A model generated the notes under the pieces. That model was not told the origin of the DNA. It saw only the letters and a program-made list of their open reading frames with translations, and ran no database searches. DNA of 64,000 nt from an uncultured Planctomycetota bacterium (lineage in GTDB: Bacteria; Planctomycetota; Planctomycetia; Isosphaerales; Isosphaeraceae): NCBI GenBank assembly GCA_963823665.1, contig CAWGMQ010000006.1, forward strand, positions 256,001 to 320,000, given 5' to 3'. Made by a program: the position numbers and the translations under genes. Below, one piece after another: positions 27,713 through 51,808 of the stretch (positions are counted from its first letter, which is position 1; each line of letters opens with the position of its first letter).

Positions 27713-27926
27713 GGCTGTGACCTCGGCAAGTATGACTAGACCATTGAGTGAGAACATCGTACAATTGTCGTTGATCAAGGTACCGCGCTATGCGAGGCGT
27801 TGCAAGGACGAACAGAGGGATGGGGCATCATCCGCCCTAGAAGGGCGTGCGTTCCGGTCGTGAACCCGATAACGTGGCGTCTAGCGAGCAACTTCATGAT
27901 CCAGGCTTCGGCGCGGCGAATCAGGA

Positions 27927-28709
27927 ATGACCTCCATGTCAGCCGAATTCGAGAATGATCCGGAATTCAACGATGACATCCCGAAGGCAAAGCCGACGCC
28001 GAGGCGGAGAAACCGGCTGCTCGAAGCTGTCATGGTCGTCGGCATCATCTTGTTCCTGATCGCACTTCTGTTACCGGCCGTTCGTAGCGCTGGGCCCGCC
28101 GCACGCCGCGCCCAGTGCACCAACAACCTCAAGCAGATTGCGCTGGCTCTTCACAATTATGAACAGCTACACGGCGCCTTTCCGCCCGCTTACACCGTGG
28201 ATGCGCATGGCAAACCGCTGCACAGTTGGCGCACGCTGATCCTGCCGTATCTCGAGCAGGACGCGCTCTACCGGACGATTGATCTGTCGAAACCCTGGAA
28301 CGATCCGGCGAACGCGAAGGCGTTTGAAACCCTGGTTTCCGTTTATCGTTGCCCCGAGGCGGCTGGGCCATTGAACACGACGACCTACCTGGCGATCGTC
28401 GTGCCGAACGGGTGCTTCAAGCCCGGGGAGCCTAGACGCCGTGCAGACATCACGGACGATCCGAATTCGACGGTGATGGTGATCGAGGCCGGCGAAGAGA
28501 ATTCGGTCCCGTGGATGGCGCCCGTGGACGCGGACGAAGCTCTGGTGATGAGGCTTGGATCGACGAGCAAGCTTCATCATGTGGGAGGCATGAACGCGTG
28601 CTTTGTCGATGGCAGCGTGCATTTCTTGAAAGCCAGCACGCCGTCCTACGTGCGCCGCGCGCTCATGTCGATTGCCGGAAACGACGGACCGCGCACGGAT
28701 GAGTGGTGA
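27927..28709 (+). CDS. DUF1559 domain protein
   Basis: IALLLPAV..ARRAQCTNNLKQIALALHNYE, HSWRTLILPYLEQ, HVGGMNACFVDGSV. Confidence 0.9.
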   Translation: MTSMSAEFENDPEFNDDIPKAKPTPRRRNRLLEAVMVVGIILFLIALLLPAVRSAGPAARRAQCTNNLKQIALALHNYEQLHGAFPPAYTVDAHGKPLHSWRTLILPYLEQDALYRTIDLSKPWNDPANAKAFETLVSVYRCPEAAGPLNTTTYLAIVVPNGCFKPGEPRRRADITDDPNSTVMVIEAGEENSVPWMAPVDADEALVMRLGSTSKLHHVGGMNACFVDGSVHFLKASTPSYVRRALMSIAGNDGPRTDEW

Positions 28710-28767
28710 TGTGAGCGGTTACTGCGCCCGTTGGCCAGCGATCCAGGCTTCGGCGGGGGTAAGAGGA

Positions 28768-29553
28768 ATGAGGTCGACGCCAGCCAAGCCAGACAATGAC
28801 CCCGACTTCAGCGCATTCGCCGCCAAGCCAAACCGAATCGGCCGATTGACGTTCATCGAAGCTGTCGCGATCATCGGCGTCATTGCGATCATGATCGGAC
28901 TTCTGTTGCCGGTGTTGTGCTCCGATCTAAGGTCTGCCCACGACCACCTTCGGTGCCCGAATAACCTCAAGCAAATTGCGCTGGCGCTTCACAGCTATGA
29001 ACAGGCGCACGGCGTTTTTCCGCCGGCCCACAGCGTTGATGCGAACGGCAAGCCGCTGCACAGTTGGCGCACGCTGATCCTGCCCTATCTCGAGCAGGAC
29101 ACACTCTACCGGACGATTGACCTTTCGAAGCCCTGGAACGATCCGGTGAATATGAAGGCGGTCACCACCGATGTATCCGTTTATCGTTGTCCCGAGTCGC
29201 GGCGACCATCGAACATGACGACGTACGTGGCGATCGTCGGTCCAAATGCGTGCTTCAAGCCCGAGGGGTCTCGGCGCCGGTCCGAAATCACGGACCATCC
29301 GCATTCGACATTGCTGGTAGTCGAGGCCGCGGACGAGGAATCGATCTACTGGATGGCGCCGGAGGATGCAATCGAATCGCTGGTGACTAACATTGGCCTG
29401 GGACCGAAGACCCAGATCCATCATGACGGCTTCACGAATGGGTGTTGCGTTGACGGTAGCGTTCGATTGCTGAAGTCCAACACCTCCCAGGAAGTGTGGC
29501 GGGCTCTCGTCTCGATTTCCGGAAACGACGACGAGATCACGAAGGATTGGTGA
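28768..29553 (+). CDS. DUF1559 domain protein (tandem paralog of 27927-28709)
   Basis: CPNNLKQIALALHSYE, HSWRTLILPYLEQD.LYRTIDLSKPWNDP nearly identical to the upstream gene. Confidence 0.88.
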   Translation: MRSTPAKPDNDPDFSAFAAKPNRIGRLTFIEAVAIIGVIAIMIGLLLPVLCSDLRSAHDHLRCPNNLKQIALALHSYEQAHGVFPPAHSVDANGKPLHSWRTLILPYLEQDTLYRTIDLSKPWNDPVNMKAVTTDVSVYRCPESRRPSNMTTYVAIVGPNACFKPEGSRRRSEITDHPHSTLLVVEAADEESIYWMAPEDAIESLVTNIGLGPKTQIHHDGFTNGCCVDGSVRLLKSNTSQEVWRALVSISGNDDEITKDW

Positions 29554-31633: not shown

Positions 31634-32029
31634 GTGTCGTGGTTGGTTGTATCCATCTTCCTGGTCGTTTGGGTCTGGGCCTGGGCTACTTCTATGCGCT
31701 TTCTCTACCACGTCGCTTCGCGTGCGCTCGCAAGATGGGCCGCCGAGAGTGGACACAGTATCGAAGAACAAAGGGCTTCATTCTGGCTACATGGACCTTT
31801 CGCCTTCGAACGCGATGGATGGCAAAGGGTCTATCGCGTCAAGGTGCGCGAAAAGAATGGAGTATTGAAGGACGGCTGGGTACGCGTCGGGAGACGGTGG
31901 TGGCCTTGCTTATCGATCGCGGATTGTCCGGTCGAGGTTCGATGGGACGGAGACGAGGCACAGCCGGAACCAGCCATTCCGCCGGCACCTCCCGTGAATG
32001 ATCCGTTATGGGATCGGGAATTGGATTGA
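31634..32029 (+). CDS. Hypothetical membrane-anchored protein
   Basis: N-terminal TM; GPF..VYRVKV..GWVRVG..VEVRWD; ends DPLWDRELD, a C-terminal motif I associate with Isosphaeraceae proteins. Confidence 0.6.
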   Translation: MSWLVVSIFLVVWVWAWATSMRFLYHVASRALARWAAESGHSIEEQRASFWLHGPFAFERDGWQRVYRVKVREKNGVLKDGWVRVGRRWWPCLSIADCPVEVRWDGDEAQPEPAIPPAPPVNDPLWDRELD

Positions 32030-32094
32030 GACGGCGTTGGACGAGGAGAGCATCGTCGAATGCCGACAAGACGATTCAACCCGATTGGTTGCGC

Positions 32095-32385
32095 TTGCTC
32101 GAAGAGCCGCGGGATATCCCGGGCTCCCTGGATGATTCGGATTAATTCAATCCCGTCTTTGATGGGTCGATAGAATACGGCGTAGTTCCACACCGCGAAA
32201 TGCCTGAGATTCGGTGCATATTCCTCAGAACGTGCTCCGATTTGAGGATGCTCGGCGTGAAGCTCGCATGTCCGCTCAAACTTGGTCGCGAAGCGGTCCG
32301 CGGCGTCGGTCCGCTGGCTGTCCAGATATTCGAGGATTCCTTCCAGGTCTTCCTGGGCCTGTTCCGAGCGGATGACTCGGGCCAT
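32095..32385 (-). CDS. parE: ParE/RelE family toxin; expected stop reads CAA so the ORF runs on to 31831
   Basis: RSEQAQEDLEGILEYL..A..F..HPQIG..LRHF...YAVFYRP....ELIRIIQGARDI; start overlaps the antitoxin stop. Confidence 0.85.
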
Positions 32386-32654
32386 CACACTCCTCCGCTG
32401 CCGTTCCGTCGGCGACTGCGGACCTTCGCAAGCGTTCCCTGGACATCCAACGGCGCGACTTCGCCGCGGTCGGCCTGGTCGATGCCGATTTGAATTGTTC
32501 TCCGAACCTCGTCGAACTTCATCGCCTGAAGCTTGTCACGCTCCTCAAGAAGCCGAAGGGCCTCCCGCACGACTTCGCTAGCCGAGAGATACAAGCCGGT
32601 CTCGACCTTCTTGTGAATCAATTGTTCGAGCTCTGGTGTGAGTGACACATTCAT
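32385..32654 (-). CDS. parD: ParD family (ribbon-helix-helix) antitoxin
   Basis: MNVSLTPELEQLIHKKVETGLYLSASEVVREALRLLEERD; GGAGG RBS. Confidence 0.92.
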   Translation of the reverse strand: MNVSLTPELEQLIHKKVETGLYLSASEVVREALRLLEERDKLQAMKFDEVRRTIQIGIDQADRGEVAPLDVQGTLAKVRSRRRNGSGGV

Positions 32655-34392: not shown

Positions 34393-34606
34393 CGAGCACC
34401 CGCGCGGTTCGCGGCCGGCCCGGAGATTAGCTCCACGGCTGGTCCGCGGACGCGGGAGCGTGGGGCCCTGGCGCGTGCTCGATTGTGCTCACGCTGCGGG
34501 CCACAACTCTGGTCACAAAAGATTTCGCTCCCTGGTGCTGTTTCGTGATTACACTACGGGATGTCTTGCGCGCTGTGCATGTTCAATCCCCGGGCGGGAC
34601 TCTGAG

Positions 34607-36292
34607 ATGGCCAAAAGAAAACCGAAGGAACCCGAGCCGGGCGATGCGGAGCCGGTTTCGGCGGAAGAGGAGGCGGCTTCGCGCGGCGATCACCCAGACG
34701 AATCCGCGACCAAGCCTGGCGAATCATTCGACGACTCCACCCAGCAAGGCAGGCTGGATAAGAGTGACCCCGGCGAGAAAGGATTCACGCCGGAAGTCCT
34801 CGACAAGACGATCATCGCGATTCCGCTCCTCAAGGACCTCAAGAAAGAAGATGACGAAGCGAAGAAAACCGGTCAAACCGCGGCGACCAAGGCCGCGCTG
34901 CATCCGGTGATCATCGACCTGAATCTCCTGTATCCGGTCAACGGGCGAAAAGGCGCGCGAAAGAGGGTGGAGGAGCTTGTCCCGAAGGCGGTTGCCCTTA
35001 CCGGGGGAGACTCGGACGAGGAGGGCATCAACGTCGATAAGAGCAAGCTCAGCGAGCAATACCTCTTCTGCCGTTTGTCAGGCGCGACCATTCGCAAGCT
35101 GGTGGTCCTCGATAACCCTCCGAAACGCAGCGCCGGCGCGGGTGCGCACGGAAATGCGATCTATCACATCTGGCCGGACTTTCGCATCAAGGGGCTCATC
35201 AACAAATCGATCAGCACGGTGAAGGCAGACGCGGCCCATCGGTCTTTCTCGGCACTGGGCGAGAACATCGTCTGGGCCGTGATTGATTCGGGGATCGACT
35301 CCAAGCACCCCCATTTTGCGAAGCACGGCAATTGCACGTTCGATGAAACGATCGAAGCCATAGACTTCACGACTGTCGGCAAGAAAAAAGGCAATGCATA
35401 TCGCGATGTCTACGGGCACGGAACTCACGTCGCCGGCATCATCGCCGGTTGGAGCGGCGCGTCGGAGCAAGAGCCCATCAAGGTCACGTGCCGGCACCGC
35501 GACGAGCGAGGTGAAGTCGCGAGAGAAAGCCAGACGATCAAGTCTCCCATCTCGGGAATGGCGCCGCACTGCAAACTGCTTTCACTCAAGGTGCTGGACG
35601 ACAAGGGGAACGGTGAGGTCAGCAGTGTGATCGCGGCGCTCGAGCACATTCAGGAGATCAACGGTCACGGCCGGCGCATCCGGGTGCACGGGGTGAATCT
35701 GAGCGTCGGATACGACTTCGAGCCCGAGTGGTTTGCGTGTGGTCAAAGCCCGCTTTGCGTCGAAGTCAACCGGCTGGTCAAGTCGGGCGTTGTTGTGGTG
35801 GCCGCGGCCGGCAATTCGGGATATGGCTCAATCCTGCCGCAATTCCCCGGCCGTGTGAACTCGGCCGGAATCGAGCTGACGATCAACGACCCGGGCAACG
35901 CCGACCTGGCGATCACCGTCGGCTCCACGCACCGCGACATGCCGCACATCTATGGCGTCTCGTATTTCTCGTCGAAAGGGCCGACCGGTGACGGCCGTTA
36001 CAAGCCCGACATCGTTGCGCCCGGCGAGAAGATCATTTCGTGCTGCTCCAAAGACGAGGATTTGGGCGAACACCACAAAGGCGAACACTACAAAGAAGAA
36101 AGCGGCACCAGCATGGCCGCGCCGCACGTCTCGGGCGTGATTGCCGCGTTTCTTTCGATACGCAGCGAATACATCGGCTCGCCGGAGGAGGTGAAGCGGA
36201 TCTTCCTCGCAACGGCCACCGACTTGAATCGCACCCCGTACTATCAGGGGAAAGGATTGGTGGACCTGATGCGGGCTATCCAGTCGGTCTAG
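34607..36292 (+). CDS. S8 (subtilisin-like) serine protease, no signal peptide, with an N-terminal pro-region
   Basis: Catalytic triad VIDSGID / YGHGTHVAGII / SGTSMAAPHVSG; oxyanion AAAGNSG; charged N-terminus. Confidence 0.92.
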   Translation: MAKRKPKEPEPGDAEPVSAEEEAASRGDHPDESATKPGESFDDSTQQGRLDKSDPGEKGFTPEVLDKTIIAIPLLKDLKKEDDEAKKTGQTAATKAALHPVIIDLNLLYPVNGRKGARKRVEELVPKAVALTGGDSDEEGINVDKSKLSEQYLFCRLSGATIRKLVVLDNPPKRSAGAGAHGNAIYHIWPDFRIKGLINKSISTVKADAAHRSFSALGENIVWAVIDSGIDSKHPHFAKHGNCTFDETIEAIDFTTVGKKKGNAYRDVYGHGTHVAGIIAGWSGASEQEPIKVTCRHRDERGEVARESQTIKSPISGMAPHCKLLSLKVLDDKGNGEVSSVIAALEHIQEINGHGRRIRVHGVNLSVGYDFEPEWFACGQSPLCVEVNRLVKSGVVVVAAAGNSGYGSILPQFPGRVNSAGIELTINDPGNADLAITVGSTHRDMPHIYGVSYFSSKGPTGDGRYKPDIVAPGEKIISCCSKDEDLGEHHKGEHYKEESGTSMAAPHVSGVIAAFLSIRSEYIGSPEEVKRIFLATATDLNRTPYYQGKGLVDLMRAIQSV

Positions 36293-36388
36293 CGGCTGGA
36301 TGGTCAGGAGCTTGCGAGCGATCACATATTGCGGCCGGGTGCGGCCCAGGTGATCAAGCCGTTCTTTGATGGACTAAAGGAGATCATC

Positions 36389-37809
36389 ATGCCTGCAGTC
36401 GCGAATTTATCAGGGTTTCCATGTTATGAAGTTCAGTTCAAGAAGGACGGCAGCTTGAACGACGGCGCTGACCTGGACGGGCCTGTCGCGTTTATCAAGA
36501 ACAAAGAAATCACCGATCTATTCGTGATCTCTCACGGGTGGAACAACGATATGAAGGATGCCCGGGCGCTTTACAAGAACTTCTTCGCCGTCCTGCGAAA
36601 GGCTCTCGACGGCGACCAGGCGCCGCTCGAGCGCGGCCGGAAGTTCGGCGTGCTCGCGATACTCTGGCCGTCGAAGCGATTTGCCGAAAAGGCGCTCATC
36701 CCGGGCGGCGCGGCCGCGGCGAGCTCGAAGGCGAGTGCGAAGCTCGTCAAGGAACACATTGATTCACTTAAAGGATTCTTCGACGCGCCCGGGGCCGACC
36801 TTGCCCTCGAGAAGGCGAAGGAGCTGGTGCTCGATCTCGAAGACAGCGCGAGAGCTTGCGCGAATTTGCTCGCCTGATTCGCTCGGCCCTGCCGGCTGCC
36901 GGCGACGATCCGGAAGGAGCCCTGGATCACTTCATCGCGGCGGAGGGTGACTCGCTCATGGTGCGGCTCAAAGAGCCGATCGTGGTGCTTCAGGGGAAGC
37001 AAGCCGGAAAGGGTGGCGCTGCGAATCTTCTGGGGGACGCGGCGTGCGCGGCGGGCAACGCAATCGTCGATGCCGGCAAGGGGATGGCTGCCGCGGCGGG
37101 CCGGCTGCTCAATCTCACCACCTATTATCAGATGAAGGAGCGCGCAGAGATCGTCGGTCGGGGTGGCGTCTACCAGATTCTGCGGAAGATTCGCGACGCC
37201 AAGTTGAAGGTCCGTCTTCATCTTGCCGGGCACAGCTTCGGTGGGCGGCTGGTGACCTCGGCGGCGCTCGGGCCGCCGGGCGGGCCCGCGATCAAGCCGG
37301 AGACGATGATGCTCATGCAGGCTGCGTTTTCCCATAACGGTTTTGCAGCGAAATATGATGGAAAGAACGACGGTTTCTTCCGGCAGGTGGTCGCCGCGAA
37401 GCGAGTGAACGGCCCGATCTTGATCACGCACACCGCGAATGACAAAGCGGTGGGAATCGCGTATGCGCTTGCCTCGCGAATCTCGGGCGTGACGGGCGCG
37501 GCCCTGGGGGATGCGAGCGACATTTACGGCGGCATCGGCCGCAACGGGGCCGTCAAGACGAAGGAAGCAAAGTTCCTCGAGCTCGGCGAGGTCGGCACCG
37601 ATTATGATTTCGCCCCCGGAGTTCTCTATAACCTGCACGCCGACGTCATAGCCGAGCACAGCGACATCTGCAAGGCACCGGTCGTCGCCGCTTTGCTCGC
37701 GGCGGTTGCGAAGAGCGGGCCGCTTGCAAAGAGCGCACCAGCCGCGGCCTCCGCGCCCAAGAAAACAAAACCGCGAGCGACCAAGCGCGCTTCGTCTGCA
37801 ACCCGTTGA
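36389..37809 (+). CDS. Alpha/beta-hydrolase fold protein with a helical insertion; frameshift near 36857
   Basis: GGAG RBS; ISHGWNND (oxyanion HG), ILWPSKRF, TYYQMKERA, HLAGHSFGGR nucleophile elbow, QAAFSH, NDKAVG..Y, EHSDI. Confidence 0.8.
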
Positions 37810-37897
37810 GTCGGTGGTTGCCAGGACTTATGATCAGTGTTTGGTCCGATTCATCGGTGCGCGTGTTCTTCGAAGCCAAAGTTGAGATCGAGTTGCC

Positions 37898-38908
37898 ATG
37901 AAGCATCCGGAGTCGAAATCAGACTACAGGATGGTGCTGGATCCGTTGCTCGAAGGAAAGGTTGTTCCCTTCATCGGGGCGGGCGTCAACCTGTGCGGAA
38001 GGCCGCGCGACCCGGATGACGAGACGAAATTTGTTCCGTGGGAGGGTAAGTATATCCCGAGCGGCTGGGAGCTCACGGAGTACCTGGTCGAAACGTACAA
38101 CTATCCCAGGGACGAGCCACGTGATCTGTTGCGCGTGTCGCAGTACGTGGCTGTCAAGAACGGTACCGGGCCGCTTTATGAAAGGTTGCATGACGTGCTG
38201 GTGAAGGGAGACTTTCCAATCACGGCGGTGCATCAGTTCCTGGCGCGCTTACCTGCCGCGAGTAGTGCGGCGAGAAACAAGAGGCGCGACCCCAAGAAGG
38301 TGTATCCTCTGATCATCACGACCAATTATGACGACGTGATGGAGCGCGCGTTCGACGAGGTGGGCGAGCCTTATGATCTGGTGTTTTACGCGGCGCAAGG
38401 GAACGAGAAGGAGAGGTTCTTGCACCGCGCACCAGGTGAGGAACCTCGTCCGATCCTCATAGCGAACAACTATCAAATCGAAGTCGACGGCCGAGCGTGC
38501 ATTCTGCTGGACCAGCGTCCGGTGATCCTCAAGATCCACGGGGCGGTGGACCGGCGGTCCCCGGACCGGGACAGTTACGTGATCACCGAGGATGACTACA
38601 TCGACTACTTGACGCTGCCCCCTCTGACTACCTTGCTGCCCGTTCCCTTACCCGCGCGGTTGGCTCACTGCCATTTCCTGTTCCTGGGCTACAGCCTGGC
38701 GGACTGGAACATGCGCGCGTTTTTCCGCCGGATCTGGAAAGACGCAAAGCTCAGCTACAGGTCGTGGGCAGTGGAAATCCTCAACCGGAAGATCGATCAG
38801 ATGTTCTGGAGAGAGCGGAACGTGGACGTGATCGTCTCGAGTCTGGAGGATTATTTTGCCGATCTGACGGAGCTTCTCGAGTCCCCTGCGGCGGGTCCAA
38901 CTCCATGA
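37898..38908 (+). CDS. Stand-alone SIR2-like (SIR2_2) protein, predicted NADase effector
   Basis: VPFIGAGVN, IITTNYDD, ILKIHG, YVITEDDY, FLFLGYSLADWN motifs. Confidence 0.88.
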   Translation: MKHPESKSDYRMVLDPLLEGKVVPFIGAGVNLCGRPRDPDDETKFVPWEGKYIPSGWELTEYLVETYNYPRDEPRDLLRVSQYVAVKNGTGPLYERLHDVLVKGDFPITAVHQFLARLPAASSAARNKRRDPKKVYPLIITTNYDDVMERAFDEVGEPYDLVFYAAQGNEKERFLHRAPGEEPRPILIANNYQIEVDGRACILLDQRPVILKIHGAVDRRSPDRDSYVITEDDYIDYLTLPPLTTLLPVPLPARLAHCHFLFLGYSLADWNMRAFFRRIWKDAKLSYRSWAVEILNRKIDQMFWRERNVDVIVSSLEDYFADLTELLESPAAGPTP

Positions 38909-41900
38909 CGGACACGGGAAGTGCTGGCACCGTTGAGAGGCCCTTCGTCGGGCTGGCGCCATTCGCCGAGGGTGACGCGCGCTACTTCTTCGGCCGTGAC
39001 ACGGATCGGGCAGTGATCACGTCAAACCTGGTTGCCTCGCGGTTGACTGTACTCTACGGGCCCAGCGGGTGCGGCAAGAGCTCGTTGCTCGACGCGGGTG
39101 TCGTGAACCAGGTCAACAACATGGTCGTGCCGCGGCAGACTGCCGAAATAGGCAAGCCCGAGTTTGTGGTCGTGAGCTTTCACGAGTGGCGCGACCGCCC
39201 GCGGGATGCGCTGCTCGAGCGATTGCGGGCGCGCATCGAAGCCGTGGTGGGTCGAGCCATCGAGCCGCCGGGGCAAGACTTGCTGGCCGATGTTCTCGCT
39301 TCATGGTCGAGTGAGGTCAGCGGGGCGCTTTTGCTCGTGCTGGACCAGTTCGAGGATTACTTTCTTTATCACGGGCGGAAGGTGGTGGAGGGGAAGTTCG
39401 CGCACGAGCTCTCTGGCGCGATCAACCGCAGCGGTCTGCGGGCAAACTTCCTGATTTCGATTCGCGAAGACTCTCTGGCACAGCTCGACGCCTTCCAGGG
39501 GCACGTACAGAATCTGCTATCGAACACCCTTCGCCTCGACCGGCTCGACCAGAAGCGGGGCCGTGAGACGATCGTCGGGCCGATCGAGCGGTACAACGAG
39601 CTGCGCGGGAACGGCGCCCCGAAGATCACGATCGAGCCGGAGCTGGTTAACGCCGTGCTGCACGCGGTGAAGGCGGGGTCGATCAACCTCGATACCACGG
39701 GCCGCGGACGTGTGGACCAGCGTGATGAGTCGGGTGAAGATGCCGGCTCGATCGAGACAGCCTACCTGCAACTCGTCATGAGGCGGCTGTGGGAGGCCGA
39801 GATCGCCGCCGAATCACACGTGCTGCGAATGGCGACGTTCGATGCCTTGGGCCGTGCGCAACGGATCGTCGGAACGCATCTTGATACGGTGATGAAGTCC
39901 TTCGACACCGAGCGGCGCGGCATTGCTGCGGAGCTTTTTCGCTACCTGGTGACGCCGACGGGTACCAAGATCGCGCTCTCCTTGAACGACCTGGCGGGCC
40001 TGACCGGGCTGTCGGGAGAGGCCGTCGCTCCGGTGCTGGAGCAGCTTGGCTCGCCGCGTGTGAGAGTGCTGCGCGAGGTCAAGGGACCGATCGACGATCA
40101 GGCGACGCACCGGCACGAGATCTACCATGATGTCCTGGCGGGTGTGGTCCTCGACTGGAGGCGGAGGTATTCGACCGAGCGGGCCAAAAAAAGAGTGCGC
40201 CGGAACATTCTGCTTGTCAGCTCGGGCGTGCTGGTGGCATTGATCCTGCTCTTCAGCGTCCTCGAGGCAAGATACAAGGAACGAATTGCCGAGGAGAGAG
40301 CGACACTCGACGCGAAGGAGCGGGAGCTGACGGCCGTCGCGAACACGAGAATTGCCAAGGCCGAGTCCGAGGCCGCACAATCGAGCGTGCTCGCGACGGG
40401 TGCCGCGCTCGTCCTCGGTGACGACCCCGATCTGAGTCTGGCGCTGGCGCTGGCCGCAATCGGGTCTCACAGGTCTCCGACTGCGGAACGCGCCTTGCGG
40501 CAGGCGCTGGCAGCGGCTCGCGTGCGCCAGGTCGTGGGCAAGGCCGGCGGAAGCAAGCTGGTGTCGGTCGCGTACAGCCCGGATGGCCGGCAATTCGCCA
40601 CGGCGGGGGAGGATGGCAAGGCCGAGCTCTGGGACACGGCCTCCGGCGCTCCGGTGGGAAGAATCGACAACGTCGCGATCAGAGGCGCGAGCCTCGCAGC
40701 GCTTCAGTTTGTCGGCGAGGGCCAATACTTCGCCACCGTTGACGTCGGCGGGAACGTGGCTGTCTTCGACCTCTCTTCGCCGGGTATGAAGCTCGAAAGA
40801 GTCATCGGGCCTCCGAAGAGCACGAGGATGCTTGCGCTTTCATTCGCCGGCGCCGCAGCCCGAGTTGCCGTAGCGACTGATGACAAGGCCATCCGTTGCT
40901 GGGAACTTCCGTCGGGAAAGCCGCTTGTCGACAAGATTCACCCGAGCGATTCGGTAAAGGCGCTCATGCTCAGTCCGGATGGCGAGAAGCTCGCGATCGG
41001 ACTGGAAGCAGCCGCCGCGAATGGACCTGGGCACCCGGGCGGCGCGCGGGTTGGCACCGGCGACGGCGCTGGCGTGGGCGACTCGCACACGGGCGATCGA
41101 TCGACTGTGCGGATCGTCGAGCTTTCCGATCCCGATGCAGGGGCGAGCCTGAGCGAGACGGCGACAGTCACCGCCCTGGCCTTCGACCCAGACGGCAAGC
41201 GACTCGCGGTGGGCACACGCGTGGAGCAGTCGGGCGTGACGGCCCTCTCCCCCTTGCGGCTCTGGAGTTTGCAGAACAAGGCATGGCGCCACGGAGCGAA
41301 CATCCAGGGCCGGTTTGAACCCGCGGTCGTCGAATTCAACCCAACGGGGACGCTCCTGGCCACCGGCGGCAAGGATGGGTTCGCACAACTTTGGGACGCG
41401 AACCTCGGCTACCCTCGGGGCACGCTGAACTGTCAGTCTCCGATCACGCAGGTGGCATTCAGCCCGGACGGTGAACGAGTTCTCCTCGCGTCCGAGGATT
41501 TGTCGGTACGGATCTGGCCCGTCGGCACGAACGGCTCGCTGCTGGTGCTTCGTGGGCACAGGAACGATGTTCTGGATGCGGTGTTCGCGCCGGACGGTCA
41601 GACGATCGCGACCGCCAGCGCAGACGGAACTGCGCGAATATGGAATGCGTCTGCTGAATCTCCATCAATCGCACTCCCCGCCCCGGCAGCGCCGTGGACT
41701 AACGCCGTCTTCACCCCCGACAGCAAGCGCGTGATCCTGGCGGGAGCCGACAATCAATTGCGGATGGTGGAAACGACCACGGGCCAGGTCGTCGGCGAGC
41801 CGCACCCGCACCCCGCGCCGGTGATCGCCATGGACCTGAGCACAGATGGGTCGAGGCTGGCCACGGCGGGTGGTGACAGGATTGCACGGGTGTGGAATCT

Positions 41901-44865
41901 AGCCGCCTGGCAAACTCCGATCGAGTTTTCCGGGCACACAGCCGCCCTTGCGGCCGTGGCATTTTCCCCGGACGGGCGCCGGCTCGCGACGGCATCGTAT
42001 GATCAGACGGCCCGCGTCTATGACCTCGCGTCGGGCCGAGCGCTTGCGGCGCTCGAGGGTCACTCCGCGGCTGTCACCGGCCTGGCGTTTCGGCACGACA
42101 GCGCGCGGCTCGCGACAACGGGGCTCGACAACACGGTGCGCCTGTGGAACACGGCAACGAATCGGGAGATATGGAATCAAGCGGGCTACACGGCCCACCT
42201 GAGCAGTGAAGTGTTTGGCCCCGACGGCCTCGTGATCACGCCTAACATGGGGATTGGAGCGAGCCGGGAAACGAAGACCGACATGGCTCAAGTGATCGAC
42301 GTGGCTACCGGCAGCACCCGCAGACTTCGGGGCCACGCGGGGACCGTCGCGGCCGCAGCCTTCAGCCCGGATGGCAGGACGGTGGCCAGCTCCGGGTTCG
42401 ACAGGACGGTCCGGTTCTGGGAAGCAGCGAGCGGCCAGCCTGCCGGCCAGCCTCTTTACGGACACACCGCCCGTGTCGGCAACGTTGTCTTCAGCCCCAA
42501 GGGGACGTACCTCGCGTCGGAAGCGTTCGATGCTACAGGGATCATCTGGGATGCCCGGCGCAAAGTCGAGTTGTTTCGTCTTTCCGGTTTGACAAGCGCG
42601 GTTTCGATCCTGGCGTTTGATCCCGACGAGAAGGTTCTCGCAACGGCGGACCGCAAATTCAGCGTGAATCTCTGGGATGTCGCGCAGGGCCAGATCGTGC
42701 GAATGCTGGAAGGCCACACCGGGGCGATCAGTGCGTTCGCCTTCAGCCCCGACGGCCGTTTCGCCGCTACGGCGAGCAACGACGGCACGACCCGAATCTG
42801 GAATGTGAGCACTGGCGGACTGGTTAATTTATTCAAGCTCCAGAATCGAGTAGCTGTTACACCGATCCAGTTCGCCGTCGACGCCAAGGGAGAGCTCATT
42901 TTCACGTATGCTGATGAGGCGGCCCATTTCTGGACAGTGCAGGGCGGCTCGAAGGACCCACGGGTCGTTCCAGTAGGAGCGCATGGTACCGCGCTGGCTT
43001 TCGACAAGGAGGGAAAGAAACTGGCCATCGGTTGCTCGGACGGGTCAGTGCATCTGGCAGATACAACCACTATGGGAATCACTTCTCGACAGCCGAGCTG
43101 GTACATGTCGACTGAGAACCTGCCTGTTTTCAGTCCGGACGCCGGACGGCTCGTCACGGCCGACCTGAACGGCCTGGCACACGTCTGGGACACCAAGACC
43201 GGGTCTGTGATCCACGATTTGCCGCATGAGGGCCAGCGCGTGTTAGCCGCCACGTTCAGTTCCGACGGCCGCCTGCTCGCCACGGCGACGGATCGTGCCG
43301 TCGTGCGGCTCTGGAATACGGCGATGGCGAATGCCCCACTCTTCCGCCATGTCGTCAAATATCCACAGGTGCTCCTCGCCTTCAATCCTGCCGGCACGCT
43401 TCTGGCCACCGGTAGTGGATCGGAAAACACGGTGCTTCTGTTGAACTGCGACAAAGGCGTCGAGGCCGCCAGGCTCACGGCCAGCGGAAGTGGTTTGAGT
43501 AAGATCGTCTTCAGCGCAGACGGTCAACAAATCGCGGCGAGCTGCCGCGACAATGCGACGCACGTATGGGATGCCCAGACTTTCAAGGCCGGGCGGCCGC
43601 TGCTGTGCGATGCGAGCGTCAATCAGCTTTCCTTCAGCCCCGACGGGACCAAGCTGGCGACGGCAGGAGGATTGAAGGCACGCATCTGGGACCTGAAGAC
43701 ACGGACGCCGAGGGATCTGCCTGTCCAGATGCCGGGCGTCGTCCGCTGTTTGAAATTCAGCCCGAGCGGAGAGCAGCTTGCCTCCGCGGGCGACGATCCG
43801 GTGGTCCGGGTCTGGGACGCGCAGACACTCAAGCAAGTCGCCGACCTGCCGGGCCTTCGCTATCCTGTGAATGAAGTTGATTTCAGTCCCGACAGCAAGT
43901 GCGTCGTGGCGGCATCCGGCGATGTTTCGGTTCGGAGCTGGGAAGTCGCGACGGCCAAGCTGGTCGCCGAGATGCGCGTCGGTGCGGCGACTCCGGCCGT
44001 TGCATACACCAAAGATGGGGCATTCATCACGACCGTCGACTACGCGAACGGGGCGAAAGTCTGGGATGCGAAGTCTGGCAAGCTCCTTTCCGCGCTCGGA
44101 AATATCGCCCACTCGCCCGTCAAGAGCCTGGCATTCAATCGTGACGGCAAGTCAATCATCGCCGTTCTGGGCGACGGCACGGCATGGGTCCGGGACGCAG
44201 ATACGTTGCGGTTCAAAGACGTTGTCGGCTCAGCCGAAGCGTTCACCAACGTACTTCAGATCGATCGCGACGGCGCCCGCGTGGTGATTACCCACGGCGA
44301 GGCAGGCTGGAACGATTCCGATCAGAAGCCGTTTGCTCTGATCGTGCATGAGGACAACACGCCCGCCGAGCACGTGCGCGATCGGACCACCTCCGCGGTG
44401 ATCGAAGCAGGGTTCAGCCGCAGCGGCAAGCTCGCGTTCACGCTCAGGCGTGACGGTACAGCGACCGTGTGGGAAACTTCCTCGAGGAAGTCGCTAGTCA
44501 GGACGGGCGATTCGTCGTTTCGGCCGGGCGTGACCGCGTTCCCGGATGTGGACATCAGCCCGAATAACAAGTTCCTGGCGATCACCAGTTTGTCGGGAAA
44601 GATCAGCGTGTGGGATCTCGATTCCGGCAAAATCCTGACCACATATACAGGGCCATCGGCCAACATCCAGTGGATCGGCTTCAGTCCCGACAGCGCAATC
44701 TTGATGGCGCTTTACGACGACGGAATTGGACGTCTTTTTGGCGCCGACATGTTGGGTCCCATCGACGACGTTGCCAGGAAGGCGCAGGCCATCCTTCGCA
44801 AGGTGGGGCGGGAATTGACGGAATCCGAGCTACAGAAGTACCTGAAACAATCTCTGATCGATTGA
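38905..44865 (+). CDS. nSTAND1-type STAND NTPase - TM helix - very long WD40 repeat array (~1986 aa)
   Basis: ATGA overlap with SIR2 stop; PFVGLAPF.E.D..YFFGRD, YGPSGCGKSSLL, LLLVLDQFEDYF, LQLVMRRLW, EIYHDVL; TM ILLVSSGVLVALILLFSVL; roughly 25-30 WD40 repeats (GH..V..AFSPDG..LATAS.D.T.R.W). Confidence 0.92.
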   Translation: MTDTGSAGTVERPFVGLAPFAEGDARYFFGRDTDRAVITSNLVASRLTVLYGPSGCGKSSLLDAGVVNQVNNMVVPRQTAEIGKPEFVVVSFHEWRDRPRDALLERLRARIEAVVGRAIEPPGQDLLADVLASWSSEVSGALLLVLDQFEDYFLYHGRKVVEGKFAHELSGAINRSGLRANFLISIREDSLAQLDAFQGHVQNLLSNTLRLDRLDQKRGRETIVGPIERYNELRGNGAPKITIEPELVNAVLHAVKAGSINLDTTGRGRVDQRDESGEDAGSIETAYLQLVMRRLWEAEIAAESHVLRMATFDALGRAQRIVGTHLDTVMKSFDTERRGIAAELFRYLVTPTGTKIALSLNDLAGLTGLSGEAVAPVLEQLGSPRVRVLREVKGPIDDQATHRHEIYHDVLAGVVLDWRRRYSTERAKKRVRRNILLVSSGVLVALILLFSVLEARYKERIAEERATLDAKERELTAVANTRIAKAESEAAQSSVLATGAALVLGDDPDLSLALALAAIGSHRSPTAERALRQALAAARVRQVVGKAGGSKLVSVAYSPDGRQFATAGEDGKAELWDTASGAPVGRIDNVAIRGASLAALQFVGEGQYFATVDVGGNVAVFDLSSPGMKLERVIGPPKSTRMLALSFAGAAARVAVATDDKAIRCWELPSGKPLVDKIHPSDSVKALMLSPDGEKLAIGLEAAAANGPGHPGGARVGTGDGAGVGDSHTGDRSTVRIVELSDPDAGASLSETATVTALAFDPDGKRLAVGTRVEQSGVTALSPLRLWSLQNKAWRHGANIQGRFEPAVVEFNPTGTLLATGGKDGFAQLWDANLGYPRGTLNCQSPITQVAFSPDGERVLLASEDLSVRIWPVGTNGSLLVLRGHRNDVLDAVFAPDGQTIATASADGTARIWNASAESPSIALPAPAAPWTNAVFTPDSKRVILAGADNQLRMVETTTGQVVGEPHPHPAPVIAMDLSTDGSRLATAGGDRIARVWNLAAWQTPIEFSGHTAALAAVAFSPDGRRLATASYDQTARVYDLASGRALAALEGHSAAVTGLAFRHDSARLATTGLDNTVRLWNTATNREIWNQAGYTAHLSSEVFGPDGLVITPNMGIGASRETKTDMAQVIDVATGSTRRLRGHAGTVAAAAFSPDGRTVASSGFDRTVRFWEAASGQPAGQPLYGHTARVGNVVFSPKGTYLASEAFDATGIIWDARRKVELFRLSGLTSAVSILAFDPDEKVLATADRKFSVNLWDVAQGQIVRMLEGHTGAISAFAFSPDGRFAATASNDGTTRIWNVSTGGLVNLFKLQNRVAVTPIQFAVDAKGELIFTYADEAAHFWTVQGGSKDPRVVPVGAHGTALAFDKEGKKLAIGCSDGSVHLADTTTMGITSRQPSWYMSTENLPVFSPDAGRLVTADLNGLAHVWDTKTGSVIHDLPHEGQRVLAATFSSDGRLLATATDRAVVRLWNTAMANAPLFRHVVKYPQVLLAFNPAGTLLATGSGSENTVLLLNCDKGVEAARLTASGSGLSKIVFSADGQQIAASCRDNATHVWDAQTFKAGRPLLCDASVNQLSFSPDGTKLATAGGLKARIWDLKTRTPRDLPVQMPGVVRCLKFSPSGEQLASAGDDPVVRVWDAQTLKQVADLPGLRYPVNEVDFSPDSKCVVAASGDVSVRSWEVATAKLVAEMRVGAATPAVAYTKDGAFITTVDYANGAKVWDAKSGKLLSALGNIAHSPVKSLAFNRDGKSIIAVLGDGTAWVRDADTLRFKDVVGSAEAFTNVLQIDRDGARVVITHGEAGWNDSDQKPFALIVHEDNTPAEHVRDRTTSAVIEAGFSRSGKLAFTLRRDGTATVWETSSRKSLVRTGDSSFRPGVTAFPDVDISPNNKFLAITSLSGKISVWDLDSGKILTTYTGPSANIQWIGFSPDSAILMALYDDGIGRLFGADMLGPIDDVARKAQAILRKVGRELTESELQKYLKQSLID

Positions 44866-46293: not shown

Positions 46294-47782
46294 TCAGATC
46301 AACTGGCGGATGGGCTCGGCGCCTTCCACGCCGACGAGCTTCTGATGCAAGCCGGCGTAAAAATAGTTGAGTCCGTTGGGGTCGAGGCCGAGCTGGTGCA
46401 GGATCGTGGCATGGAGGTTCTTGACGTGGAATCGATCCTCGACGGCCGCGCTGCCGAGCTCGTCCGTTTTGCCCACGCTGGTTCCACCCTTGATGCCGCC
46501 GCCGGCCATCCACATGGTGAAGCCGAAGGAGTTGTGGTCTCTCCCGGTGCCCTGGGCGAACTCGGCGGTGGGCTGGCGGCCGAACTCGCCGCCCCAGACG
46601 ATGAGGGTTTGATCGAGGAGGCCGCGCCGCTTGAGGTCTTTGATCAGGCCCGCGATCGGTTGATCGGTGTTGCCGGCGTGAAAATTGTGGTTGGCCATCA
46701 GATCGGCGTGGGCATCCCAGTTGTCGTCGTTATGGGCGCCGCCGGAGTAGATCTGGACGAAGCGGACGCCGCGCTCGACCAGCCGCCGGGCGATCAGGCA
46801 CTTGCGGCCGAAGTCGGCCGTACGAGGCTGGTCGATGCCGTAGAGCTCTCGAGTCTCGGCCGATTCCTGGCCCAGGTCGACGGCTTCGGGCGCGGACCGC
46901 TGCATGCGAAAGGCCAGCTCGTAGCTGGCGATTCTTGCGGCGAGCTCCGAGTTGTCGGCGCGAGGCGAAGTGGGCGTCGTTTTTCTCTCGAAGGCGATCG
47001 AGCAGGAGTCTCCGCGTGGCGCGGTCTGCGCCCGGTGGCGAGGCCAGGTCATGGATCGGCACCGAATCGGCGCGCAGGACGGTTGCCTGGAACGCCGCGG
47101 GCATGTAGCCGCTTGACCAGTTCTTGGCCCCGCTGATCGGCCCCCCCTTGCGGTCGAGCATGACGACGAAACCGGGCAGGTTCTCGTTTTCGCTGCCGAG
47201 TCCGTAGGTGACCCACGAGCCCAGACAGGGGTGGCCTGAAAGCAGGCGCCCGGAATTCATCATGAGCATGGCCGACCCATGGATCGGTGATTCAGCATAC
47301 ATCGAATGGATGAAGGCGATGTCGTCGACGCAAGTCGCCAGGTGGGGGAAGAGCGTGGAGACTGGCTTGCCGCACTGCCCAAACTGCTGGAAGCTCCACT
47401 TGGGGCCGACGATTCGCCCCTGATTTTTCTTGCCGCCGCGGCCGAAGGTCTTGACCGCGATCGTCTTGCCGTCCAGAGGGTAAAGGTCGGGCTTAAAGTC
47501 GAAGGTATCGACGTGGCTCGGACCGCCGTACATGAACAGGAAGATGACGCTCTTCGCCTTTGCCCGAAGCGGCGGGACCCTGGGAGCGAGCGGATTGACG
47601 AAGGGCGTGACGCCGTCGGCCGCGACGGCCTGACGTGCGAGGAAGCCGTCGGACTGCATGAGCCCTGCAAGCGCCGCCGACCCGAAGCCGCCGCCGATCT
47701 GCCAGAGGAATTCGCGGCGGGTGCGGCCACAGAACGAGCCGGGTGGCGGACGGTCCGGACGGAACAGAGAACGTTCATCCAT
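46294..47782 (-). CDS. DUF1501 domain protein (Tat); frameshift near 46965
   Basis: TRREFL, AKSVIFLFMYGGPSHVDTFD.KP, ARRLVERGVRFVQ, WGGEFGR, GRDHN, LHATILHQLGLD. Confidence 0.92.
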
Positions 47783-48026: not shown

Positions 48027-48645
48027 ATGGCGTCGGCATCCAGCAATCACACGATTCAAATTCAAGGCTGGCTCGACAGGCTGCGCGACGGGGACGAAGC
48101 CGCCCGCGAAAAGCTGCTGCAATTCTCCTGCGAACGGCTCAGGCGATTGACTCGCAAGATGCTGCGCAGGTTCGAGCGGGTGCACCGCTGGGAGCAAACC
48201 GACGACGTGCTTCAAAGTGCGATGCTCCGATTGCATCGAACGCTTCAGGACGTGCGGCCGGATTCGCCGGCCGATTTTTACCGGCTCGCCGCGCTGAACA
48301 TTCGCCGCGAGCTGCTTGATCTGGCCAAGCATTACTTCGGCCCGTGCGGGCTGGGAGCCAGGCACGCGAGTGTGGAGGGCACGGCTGACTCGCTCGGCGG
48401 GCGCAGGAGCAGCGGGCGGCTGCGCCAGACGATGCTCCCGACCAGCTTGCGCGATGGACCGAGTTCCACGAAAAGATCGCGAGCTTGCCCGCGGACGTGC
48501 GAGATCTGTTCGATCTATTGTGGTATCAGGAGCTCCGGCAGGCCGAAGTCGCGGAGATTTTGGGCGTATCGGAGCGCACCATCAAGAGGCGCTGGGCGGC
48601 GGCTCGGCTCCAGTTGCACGAGCTCTTAGGCGGCGAATTGCCTGA
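48027..48645 (+). CDS. ECF RNA polymerase sigma factor (planctomycete kinase-associated type); frameshift near 48400
   Basis: GDEAAREKLL..RLRRL..DDVLQ..IRRELLDL region 2; second frame LP...R.LFDLLWYQEL.QAEVAEILGVSERTIKRRW region 4. Confidence 0.85.
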
Positions 48646-48660
48646 AAGTTGATTCTGCCC

Positions 48661-51600
48661 ATGACGTCGTTAAAAAGCCTTGCCGACCTGCTTGTCGAGT
48701 GGGAAGAGCAGACGGAGGCCGGCAAGACGGTGGCACTCGAAGAGCTTTGCCGCAATGCTCCCGAGCTGCTGGATGTGCTGCGCGGAATGATCGATAAGCT
48801 CCGCGCGGTGAACTCGGCCATGGCGACCCAGAGGCTCGAGCGGAGCGAGGGGAACATCGAGTTCCGTACGGTCGCGCCGGCCGAAGCGATGACGGGCACG
48901 GTCTTGCCTTCCGTTCCGGGCTACGCGATCCAGCGCGAGCTGGGCCGCGGCGGGATGGGGGTTGTTTACCTGGCGCGCCAGGAGGGGCTCGAGCGTCTGG
49001 TGGCGATCAAGATGCTACCCCAGGGGGCAGAAGCCGAGCGCACGATGCAGCGGTTTCAAACCGAGGCGGAGGTCATCGCGCGGTTGCAACATCCCAATCT
49101 CATTCAGATCTATGAAGTCGGGACGGTCGAAGGCAGGCCGTTTTTCTCGATGGAATATGTGCCGGACGGCACGCTGGAGGAGCAGCTTCGGCGTCAACCG
49201 CTGGCACCGCGTGAAGCGGCGCGGCTCATCCAGATCCTGGCGACCGCCATGCACGAGGCCCATCGCTGCGGCGTCGTGCACCGCGATCTGAAACCGGGGA
49301 ATATTCTGCTGAGACGAGAGGGCGATGGAACGGAAGATACGACGCTCGAGAGCGGCGTGTGGCTCGCCACGGCGGCCGAGGCTCCGGGGTCGTTCTGTCC
49401 CAAGATCACGGATTTCGGGTTGGCAAAGCGGCTGGGCGAGGCCGAAGGGCTGACGCTCACGCACAGCGTTCTGGGCACACCGTGCTACATGGCGCCCGAG
49501 CAGGCGCGGGGCGACTCGAAGAATGTAGCAGGGACCACCGACATCTACTCGCTGGGCGCGATCCTTTACGAGCTGCTCACCGGCCGCCCTCCGTTCAAGG
49601 CAGCAACCGTGTGGCTCACGCTGCAGCTTGTCAGCAGCGCCGAGCCCACGCCGCCGCGCTCGCTCCAGCCGAGTGTGCCCGGCGATCTCGAGGTCATCTG
49701 CCTGAAGTGTCTGGAAAAGAGCCCGGCGAAGCGTTATCCCCGGGTCATCGATCTGGCCCATGATCTGCGGCGCTTCCTCGAGGGGGAGCCTATCCTGGCG
49801 CGACCAACGCCGTTGCTGGAGCGCGGAGTCAAGTGGGCGCGACGGCGGCCGGGCCCGGCGGCTGCGATTGCCGTCGGCGTGTTCGCACTGGCGGCGCTGC
49901 TTTGCGGGGATCGCGTATCACAATGTGAAACTACAGAGCGCGCTTCGGGCCGAGCAGGCCAGCGCCACGGAGAGCCGCCGGAGGCTCGTGCGTCTGGAAG
50001 TGGCGCAGGGAAACCATGCTCTCGATCGCGGTGACAGCACACTCGCGATGCTCTGGTTTGCCGATGCCTTGCGTCTGGATGATCCCGCCCATACCCGGGC
50101 TCATCGCCTCCGGCTGGGAATGGCTGCTGCTCTTGCTCCGCCGTTGCGGCAGATCTGGTTTCATGGCGACGCGGTGCGGCAGGCCAGCTTCGATTCAGGC
50201 GGCGCGCGGGCTTTCACATTCAGCGAGGACGGGACGGTCAGGATCTGGGATGTGGAAACCGGAGCGGCGATCGGCAAGCCGCTCGTCCATCCAGCTCCGG
50301 TAGTCGACGGAGCACCCGGCGCCTCGGGGCTGGTCGTGACGGCTTGCACGGACGGATCCGGTCGAGTATGGGACACGGGCCGAGGAGAAGTCAGCGCCTA
50401 TCTCGGGCACCAGGGCCCGCTCACGACCGCGCGGTTTGACCGGGCTGGCCGAAAGATCGTGACGGCATCGCGCGACGGGACGGCCAAGCTGTGGACGGCC
50501 GATGGCAAGCTGATCGCGATCTTGAAGCATAGCGGTCCGGTGAACGATGCCGCGTTTTCTGCGGGCGGGCAGCTCGTCGTCACGGCGGCCGAGGACCGCA
50601 CGGCACGGGTCTGGGAGACCGAACATGGCGCGCCGGTGACTCCCCCCCTGCTCCATGACAGTCGAGTTGTCCAGGCGGCGCTATCGCCAGACGGGACGCT
50701 CGTCGCGACGGCCAGTGACGACGTGGTGGCGCGGATCTGGCAAGTCAGCAACACGCCGGCTGCCCCCAAGATTCTCAAACATGCGCTTCCGGTAACATGC
50801 GTATTGTTCAGCGGCGACGGCGGACGGCTCGCCACCGGCAGCCACGACGCCACCGCACGGATCTGGGACCCGCGTGATGGCAAACCGGTGGGCTCGCCGC
50901 TACGGCACGAGAGCGGTGTGCTAGGGGTTGCCTTCCATCCCGACGGCAACCGCGTTGCCACGTGCAGCGACGACAACACCGCGCGGCTGTGGGACGTGGC
51001 AACCGGCGAGCCCTTGACCGCACAGCTCAAGCACGGCGGAAATGTGCAGTGTGTCGCGATTGACCCGCGGGGGCGCTTCATCTTGACCGGCAGCATCGAC
51101 GGAACCGCGCGGCTCTGGGACATCTTGCCGGCGCGCGACAAACCGTCGGTCGAGAGGGAACCGGCGTCAAAGGTGGTGCCGCGGGAAGAGACCAAGGTTT
51201 GGTGGAGCGCTGACCGCAAGTATTATGCGACACCCGAAGGCAGTCACTCGGCGCGAATTCACGACGCGGGCGGTAAGCCGGTCGGGCCGGAGCTGCGTCA
51301 TGGCAGCCTGGTCAGCTTTGCGGCGTTCAGCCCGGATGGAGCGCGCCTGGTCACAACCAGCGAGGACTGCACGGCGCGGTTCTGGGATGCGGCGACGGGA
51401 GACCTGCTCGCACCGCCGTTGCGGCACCTGGGAAGCGTGCGCTGCGCCGCGTTCAGTCCCGACAGCCGCTCGTATGTGATGACCGCGAGTACGGACGGCA
51501 CAGCACGGATCTGGGATGTTGCGACGGGGGAGCCCGTGAGCCCGGCGCTGCGATTTTCGGGTGCACCGGTGAGTGTGGCGTTTCCTTCTGCAGAACGGGT

Positions 51601-51808
51601 TCAGGTGAGGACCGTTCAAGGGAGCGAGACCTCGACCTGGACGTGGCCGCTCGTGAGCACTCGTTTGGCCGCCGGAGTGTTGCTTTCGGAAGCGGAGGTT
51701 CTTTCGAATTGTCGCATCGATGCGGACCGCGGTCTGACGCCGCTCGATATTCGCACGTTGCGGGAGGCGTGGGTTGAAGGTGGGCGAGTGCGAGCGGGCG
51801 GTAAGTAG
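48661..51808 (+). CDS. Ser/Thr protein kinase with TM and C-terminal WD40 repeats; frameshift near 49905
   Basis: LGRGGMGVVY, VAIK, HRDLKPGN, KITDFGLAK, GTPCYMAPEQ; WD40 repeats H...V..AAFSPDG..TAS.D.TAR.WD. Confidence 0.9.

Follow-up and report, generated by a model that had tools for sequence, protein, structure and literature searches.

Four co-directional genes at positions 34607 to 44865 of a 64,000-nucleotide stretch from an uncultured soil planctomycete of the Isosphaeraceae (the window, meaning that whole stretch) encode an S8 protease, an alpha/beta-hydrolase, a SIR2_2 protein and a giant nSTAND1-WD40 protein. The genes are real, and the locus appears to be an NLR-like receptor whose SIR2 effector has its own gene (SIR2 and nSTAND1-WD40, module B) beside an S8-activated hydrolase module (S8 and hydrolase, module A). 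Each pair occurs without the other, which suggests two stacked defense modules rather than one machine. Our preferred reading, held with moderate confidence, is therefore that of two separable cell-death modules kept as neighbors in one planctomycete lineage. The initial annotation had proposed one sensor commanding two effector arms, NAD+ depletion and a protease-activated hydrolase; our results support the arms but not the shared sensor. The features of the locus (coordinates in the window, strand) are

34525..37775, no strand: stretch missing from the syntenic locus of genome G256 (approximate, from locus comparison)
34607..36292, +: S8 subtilisin-like protease, 561 amino acids (aa) (PF00082, E value 3e-47; PADLOC "subtilase"; alignment of 30; structure model)
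36389..36877, +: alpha/beta-hydrolase, N-terminal piece, 162 aa, with HGWNN, WPS and the first conserved GAA loop
36850..36877, +: hydrolase frameshift near 36860 in a GCGC context, a probable assembly error
36856..37809, +: alpha/beta-hydrolase, C-terminal piece in a different frame, 317 aa, with the second GAA loop, GHSFG nucleophile, Asp (NDKAVG) and His (HSDI)
37806..37834, +: sigma-70-like promoter site (TTGAGT-17-TATGAT) lying 92 bp upstream of the SIR2 start codon, with the hydrolase stop codon within the -35 box
37898..38908, +: predicted standalone SIR2_2 NADase (ThsA/DSR2/FAM118-like), 336 aa (PF13289, E value 3e-23)
38905..40203, +: nSTAND1 NTPase module (PF20703) lacking an N-terminal effector; SIR2 is predicted to dock on its helix 32-48
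40207..40263, +: predicted transmembrane helix, residues 435-453 (Kyte-Doolittle 2.85), which only some of the homologs share
40525..44865, +: about 1450 aa of diverged WD40 repeats, the probable sensor

Occurrence of the two gene pairs

A genome of the same genus (G256, 84% complete) holds a syntenic locus without module A, in which the upstream gene leads directly to SIR2 and the spacer before SIR2 consists of the left plus the right flank seen in the window. SIR2-nSTAND1 also stands without the S8-hydrolase pair in genomes G216 and G208 and in 14 of the 15 metagenome loci, two of which show less than 250 bp upstream. The nSTAND1 gene comes after SIR2 in all five genomes (G256, G216, G208, G800 and G805) and in 8/15 metagenome loci; five of the remaining seven end within SIR2, one ends 135 bp past it and one is a SIR2-STAND fusion. 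The order SIR2 then nSTAND1 is found wherever the DNA permits a view, and together with the complex model described below it supports the conflict or immunity role, and the predicted NAD-depleting arm, that the initial annotation had assigned.

Outside the window, module A was found at 45 loci in a scan of species genomes from many phyla. The S8 gene lies directly upstream of the hydrolase at 43 of them, the other two contigs starting within the hydrolase, and hydrolase-S8 fusions were seen in 4 of the best 150 representatives as well as in L046 and L047. As inseparable and sometimes fused neighbors, the two are probably a protease and the hydrolase that it activates, as first annotated. No nSTAND1 was detected at any of the 45 loci by tblastn and a local profile, and in G112, where module A is present, there is no close SIR2 or nSTAND1. 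These results, module B without module A in G256, G216 and G208, the absence of any link from S8 to STAND and a conserved promoter-like site for SIR2 itself all argue against one sensor with two arms. The promoter boxes are the same at -91 in G256 and at -92 in L069, with a similar site at -91 in L070 and none found in G216 or L071; a terminator scan stayed at chance level (9 vs 8.3). Module A occurs in 2/251 genomes of one phylum and 1/201 of one family, counting the center genome each time, which is too rare for statistics, and no relatives of its hydrolase were found among viral contigs.

The SIR2 protein and its nSTAND1-WD40 partner

The SIR2_2 protein carries the motifs GAG (residue 27), TTNYD (141) and KIHG (212) and matches the profiles of ThsA (7e-25), DSR2 (8e-22) and FAM118B (3e-8). 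Its N143 and H214 align with the catalytic Asn and His of ThsA, given as N112 and H152 in the available portion of the source (10.1101/2024.09.18.613514). The subfamily is widespread, with 5,531 of 8,000 scored candidates reached at an E value of 1e-20. The partners that follow SIR2 vary at their C terminus, which may be WD40, TPR, a GMC oxidoreductase or a second SIR2.

Several of these arrangements are worth recording. In the host assembly (L066:9838-13654, G000 C10), a standalone SIR2 precedes an nSTAND1 that carries a SIR2 domain of its own at the C terminus, with Phe in place of the catalytic His. Tandem SIR2-SIR2 genes occur in L067:9666-17069 (G000 C3), L151, L152 and L110, in the first three ahead of nSTAND1 and/or WD40; one member of the L110 tandem has Asn for the catalytic His, resembling an active/inactive pair. 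L080:10899-14135 has an nSTAND1 fused to a C-terminal GMC oxidoreductase right after SIR2, with a SIR2-TPR gene upstream on the other strand, and in L068:7017-9522 (G000 C6) SIR2 is fused to a piece of a family-4 glycosyltransferase (GT4), the next open reading frame (ORF) giving a GT4-conflict match. Second, long-branch SIR2 copies (P0285 and P0289) share contigs with the main copy in two related assemblies.

The partner protein (1986 aa, 38905-44865, + strand) matches PF20703 over residues 13-433 (E value 1e-40, 141 bits against a cut-off of 27.1), and its Walker A (GPSGCGKS at 52) and Walker B (LLVLDQFE at 143) are invariant or nearly so among 11 homologs. With nSTAND1 starting as early as residue 13, there is no room for a fused effector ahead of it, which must therefore work in trans. 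A hydrophobic helix scoring at least 1.9 was found in 5 of 10 STAND proteins tested. The WD40 region has diverged faster than its surroundings, with 45-48% identity to G256 compared to 75% for nSTAND1, 82% for SIR2 and 74-96% for four flanking genes. The idea that the region holds strongly conserved internal repeats, like those of the fungal HET-E type, was rejected, as only short repeats with 62-87% identity were found. In G256 the STAND-WD40 gene (L103:9120) is divided between ORFs of 1653 and 389 aa that overlap by 4 bp, either a real split or an error.

Co-folding SIR2 with the STAND protein, as the initial annotation had suggested, gave a score of 0.75 for the SIR2-nSTAND1 complex vs 0.00 for the best of three controls. 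The predicted contacts place SIR2 residues 190-205 and 244-257 on nSTAND1 helix 32-48, with at least 95% contact agreement between runs and a partner pLDDT of at least 82. The mark used for such scores was attained by 116/157 solved complexes and 2/215 mismatched pairs, counts that apply only roughly here, since our own alignments were used. The model supports binding of SIR2 to nSTAND1 but does not show it, and the high score may arise because the pair resembles SIR2-STAND proteins of solved structure, among them Avs5.

The S8 protease and the alpha/beta-hydrolase

The S8 protease has catalytic residues D227, H271, N403 and S502 and is built of a disordered N terminus (1-61), a propeptide-like alpha/beta domain (about 62-196) and the catalytic domain. 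The Foldseek matches of its structure model are pro-subtilisins, and the model shows no sensor domain. A second S8 of the host assembly, 44% identical to it over 312 residues, is followed by an MBL gene whose product matches LmuA (4e-49) and Avs1a (1e-28), and G216 holds a counterpart of this S8-MBL pair. Such pairs, with an MBL of the Avs1a/LmuA type and no sensor, are found at L154:7999-11304 (G000 C5) and L151:13927-17403 (G216). That the partner of the paralogous S8 might itself be a hydrolase was ruled out, the MBL being unlike the window hydrolase (hhalign probability 0.4%). The locus does not qualify as IetAS: the S8 scores 29.6 bits on the IetS equivalog against a cut-off of 900, and PADLOC and NCBIfam gave no IetA match at the locus.

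The hydrolase, of which the host genome has one copy only, belongs to a large family (1,276 clusters at an E value of 1e-30). Its tail is rich in Lys, Ala and Pro, a trait common to close relatives. An intact relative was modeled and has the alpha/beta-hydrolase fold, with low-confidence loops 100-113 and 210-232 on either side of a large helical insert; the best VIA match of this model has a Z score of 13.1 (root mean square deviation 4.7, 240 aligned), further alpha/beta-hydrolases follow at Z 10-12, and Foldseek returned nothing at an E value of 0.001. The GAA motif of the first loop, where pLDDT is below 50, is 96-100% conserved in 120 homologs. A GAA-type motif was present in 41/48 first loops and 36/48 second loops of S8-linked hydrolases vs 0/13 and 2/13 of those not linked to S8, a contrast that follows clade lines. 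As for its likeness to DUF900, the window pieces gave no match to PF05990, which 5 of the 120 homologs carry, and the atlas leads were 0.87 and 0.79.

The reading frame of the hydrolase is broken in the window, probably by a long-read or assembly error. At homologous loci the gene is mostly a single ORF of 434-462 aa, although it is also split at 2/45 (L042 and L045) and cut by the contig end at 3/45. Relatives with 89-94% identity (P0006 and P0513) are intact, as is one with 78% (P0004), and none of three contig sets covers the break. Alignment of the window with G256 revealed 37 frameshifting indels over 28,103 aligned bases. Three of these were traced to the window and 11 to G256, while the other 23 were unclear; of the 14 that could be placed, 8 lie at GCGC vs a background of 11%, and the hydrolase break has the same context. 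Sister assemblies carry other broken ORFs, and both hydrolase pieces keep all motifs. The alternative, independent of how the two modules are related, is that the gene is truly broken in this strain, with module A decaying there (compare its loss in G256), or that the protein naturally comes in two pieces. The break is present in the assembly, it sits in the insert predicted to be excised, an internal ATG with an upstream GGAGG follows at 36958, and P0512, an 87%-identical piece found in a different assembly, stops at this very position; the shared end fits a recurrent error but is compatible with a real split. Given the intact relatives and the GCGC enrichment, we consider a genuine break decidedly improbable.

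The surroundings of module A are varied. Among the plasmid matches, 7 of 30 examined, S8 is upstream in 4 and CHAT or C25 genes are downstream in 3. Distant planctomycete hydrolases are fused to trypsin or face CHAT-nSTAND1-WD40 genes, and others adjoin CHAT/C25; among such distant homologs the adjoining genes are CHAT-nSTAND1-WD40 in L088 and L094 and nSTAND1-TPR in L091. In L010:4301-7650, metallophosphoesterase and trypsin-TPR-S genes come right after the S8-hydrolase pair, like a second protease-effector module stacked on it. A SIR2-Macro gene lies immediately 3' of the hydrolase in L032:10945-12669, and in three loci of related betaproteobacteria (L018, L026 and L037) a 600-aa SIR2, whose C-terminal half has no assignment, lies one or two genes downstream of the hydrolase.

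Proposed mechanism and alternative explanations

STAND proteins oligomerize when activated, and subtilisins are inhibited by their propeptides. Along these lines, module B would be an NLR-like receptor that has its effector encoded apart from it: the WD40 propellers would bind a trigger, nSTAND1 would oligomerize, and SIR2, docked in the model on the N-terminal helix of nSTAND1, would become clustered and destroy NAD+, leading to cell arrest or death as in ThsA, DSR2 and Avs5. Module A would be a protease-effector pair in which the propeptide keeps S8 off until a signal arrives. The freed S8 could then cut the hydrolase within both of its flexible GAA loops, around residues 107-109 and 210-230, releasing the helical insert and leaving a toxic lipase-like enzyme, by analogy to the caspase-activated LcHydrolase. 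Either module would be able to work alone. Of this picture, the genes, their motifs and order, the separability of the pairs and the divergence of the sensor are observed, SIR2-nSTAND1 binding and the two folds come from models, and the triggers, cleavage, NADase activity, killing and a role against phages are inferred.

Several findings weigh against this account of two independent modules. The contig L069 begins within the same hydrolase and continues with a SIR2 (69% identical) and nSTAND1. Because hydrolase-SIR2-nSTAND1 recurs there, the condition under which the initial annotation would have been refuted, that homologs of the S8/hydrolase pair never co-occur with SIR2-nSTAND1, does not hold. 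A SIR2 tree of 26 rows puts L069 in a 13-row clade (98/96) that leaves out G216, but apart from the grouping of the window with G256, so that loss of module A in G256 is likelier than a fresh insertion. Five further contigs also bear on this, co-location being judged there by identical contig size in bp only, with gene order not visible: those of 55,138 and 130,014 bp have a close S8, an intact hydrolase and SIR2, that of 702,760 bp has S8 and SIR2 pieces, that of 45,570 bp has hydrolase and SIR2 pieces, and that of 35,184 bp has S8 and hydrolase only, the four SIR2-bearing ones, from related assemblies, being near kin. The adjacency of modules A and B is old and not accidental. In G216, the S8-MBL pair lies right next to a SIR2-SIR2-nSTAND1-WD40 locus that runs on the other strand. 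At 5/45 loci (3 lineages) module A has a SIR2_2 gene of another type within 10 kb, vs 0.16 expected from 50 matches in 237 Mb, an excess that kinship and island clustering inflate. No sensor is visible at any module A locus, which leaves its trigger unexplained, and a Pfam run on 130 immediate neighbors (45 loci and G112) gave mostly housekeeping or metabolic genes, weak grounds for a defense role. The possibility that the complex scored well through likeness to solved SIR2-STAND proteins and the clade-bound GAA contrast count on the same side. As a whole, the co-location pattern fits a stacking of defense modules as well as it fits real coupling. A recent insertion of module A into the window lineage had been considered and was dropped because L069 and the same-contig relatives were found; a long direct repeat on both sides of module A was rejected as well, since neither of two extra overlaps reached significance (p values of 0.12 and 0.55).

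Real coupling would mean one four-gene system, in which the WD40-STAND protein activates SIR2 and also the S8 that lacks a sensor, either directly or via NAD+ loss or ADP-ribose, giving two death arms. A gene order conserved between loci whose SIR2 proteins are only 69% identical, the same-contig relatives, the SIR2_2 excess near module A, the S8-MBL pair beside SIR2-SIR2-nSTAND1 in G216 and an S8 without a sensor of its own would all be expected of it. However, nSTAND1 is missing from all 45 outside module A loci, module B stands without module A in three genomes and nearly all the metagenome loci, and G256 kept module B intact when module A was lost; SIR2 has its own promoter-like site, and the SIR2 proteins near module A elsewhere belong to subfamilies different from that of the window SIR2. 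We therefore regard a single system as rather unlikely. Also doubtful is an inflammasome-like platform with two death outputs, where a membrane-anchored nSTAND1-WD40 receptor would recruit free SIR2 as a detachable effector and, in this lineage, also license a sensorless subtilisin that activates a lipase-like zymogen via two GAA loops, the S8 family swapping effectors (MBL nuclease or hydrolase) and borrowing sensors in trans. Another explanation leaves phages aside: module B would be a membrane-anchored receptor of envelope or neighbor-cell signals for regulated death or dormancy, and module A a stress-activated protease/esterase pair. The transmembrane helix could place the WD40 region outside the cytoplasm, the host genome has 37 nSTAND1 and 13 SIR2_2 profile matches, the neighbors of module A are mostly metabolic, and nSTAND1 systems are described computationally (PMC8195603; 10.1101/2023.09.22.558884; 10.64898/2026.10.19.760177), being only predicted in the available portions of this literature. 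The fast-diverging sensor, the ThsA/DSR2-type SIR2 and the effector-swapping S8 family are, on the other hand, hallmarks of an arms race, and one of 32 viral contigs carries a SIR2 and nSTAND1 pair (L118:9500-12854), which makes a role other than anti-phage defense distinctly unlikely.

Relation to known systems

In agreement with the initial annotation, which did not recognize the gene set as a named system, PADLOC has no model for it and gave domain-level matches only (subtilase, ThsA and WD40), with nothing for the hydrolase. NCBIfam matches of the locus proteins were far below the cut-offs and none names the set; the libraries date from 2023 and 2026. We found nothing in the literature that describes the four genes together, a SIR2 that docks on nSTAND1 or a hydrolase activated by an S8, although these may appear in the supplements to PMC12803255 (589 STAND clades) or in the supplementary figures to PMC12642450, which were not covered. 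The published systems compared below are taken from the available portions of their sources.

Module A resembles a published pair, the alpha/beta-hydrolase LcHydrolase and the protease LcCaspase. A pairing of hydrolase and caspase was noted first by Kaur et al. 2020 (PMC7159879), and Evans et al. (PMC12642450) show that the caspase-linked alpha/beta-hydrolase is a zymogen which undergoes two cleavages; the S8 clade that they name is paired with MBL alone. Both pairs have an alpha/beta-hydrolase with a helical insert before the nucleophile elbow (topology compared by eye), a protease that always adjoins and two candidate cut sites in the insert. In the window, however, the protease is an S8 and not a caspase, has no sensor fused to it and would cut at GAA instead of R-G, and the hydrolase is longer (about 445 vs 296 aa) with GHSFGG/LLQAAFS in place of AHSLG/TLGSP. 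The link to the LcHydrolase family is based on a comparison by eye. The constant linkage to the protease (43/45, plus fusions) and the alpha/beta-hydrolase fold with Ser-Asp-His are features of module A, and the 44%-identical S8 partners an MBL instead; by this analogy we infer that module A is an S8 version of the protease-activated hydrolase zymogen. Compared to the MBL-S8 module (the S8 clade in PMC12642450), the proteases are alike, the window S8 being 44% identical to an MBL-partnered one in the same genome, but the effector is an alpha/beta-hydrolase unlike MBL.

Module B is similar to Avs5 (PMC11897194) in coupling a SIR2 NADase to a STAND NTPase, with SIR2-NOD contacts. It differs in that SIR2 is a separate gene (also in homologs), the STAND clade is nSTAND1 and a giant WD40 sensor lies behind a predicted membrane helix; no Avs model was among the PADLOC and NCBIfam matches of the 1986-aa protein. 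The nSTAND1 conflict systems (PMC8195603; 10.1101/2023.09.22.558884) share an nSTAND1 with a variable C-terminal sensor and an occurrence in large-genome bacteria, whereas the forms described there have fused effectors or EAD adaptors, often with FGS sensors, and a standalone docking SIR2 is not mentioned in the portions available. WD40 sensors are listed among 198 defense-associated STAND clades (PMC12803255). With ThsA/DSR2/FAM118 (SIRim) the window SIR2 shares profile matches and the catalytic Asn and His, but unlike them and Thoeris it has no SLOG, Macro or TPR sensor domain, and there is no TIR among the locus genes.

If these assignments are right, a widespread SIR2 subfamily seems to serve nSTAND1 receptors as an effector that is not fused to them, the helix for its docking being predicted, and a large uncharacterized hydrolase family is tied to an S8 lineage that elsewhere partners an MBL nuclease. 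The latter link would widen the known activation of such a hydrolase by a caspase to subtilisins, and it points to candidate cut sites. The locus and its natural deletion in a sister genome are a good place to study how a sensorless S8 is switched on.

Locus layout and neighboring genes

The host assembly (G000) comprises 16.5 Mb in 12 contigs, and close named homologs are from Isosphaeraceae planctomycetes. The intergenic gaps, from S8 through hydrolase and SIR2_2 to nSTAND1-WD40, are 96, 88 and -4 bp. The operon of four genes was thus described correctly as to spacing and as to S8, SIR2_2 and nSTAND1-WD40, each a single ORF, but not for the hydrolase, which is split over two. The unrelated metabolic flanks were found to be a xylose-isomerase-like gene and a DegT aminotransferase. 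The catalytic motifs of S8 and SIR2 and the Walker A/B motifs are intact as first noted, with the GHSFG of the hydrolase on its C-terminal piece. The absence of signal peptides from the first three genes is in line with hydropathy, the best 19-residue windows reaching 0.9-1.5 with no strong hydrophobic stretch (no dedicated signal-peptide predictor was used).

About 2 kb upstream of S8 (31834-32654), a ParD-type antitoxin (Pfam) stands beside a probable ParE-type toxin ORF, recognized by eye in a stretch that had no Pfam match when tested. Farther upstream, at 26873-29553, there are three DUF1559-like paralogs in a row, which we take to be typical of planctomycetes. More split or frameshifted genes are found at 46294-47782, 48027-48645 and 48649-51808 and near 58462 and 61316 (DUF1501, ECF-sigma-like and kinase-WD40 genes), probably due to assembly indels.

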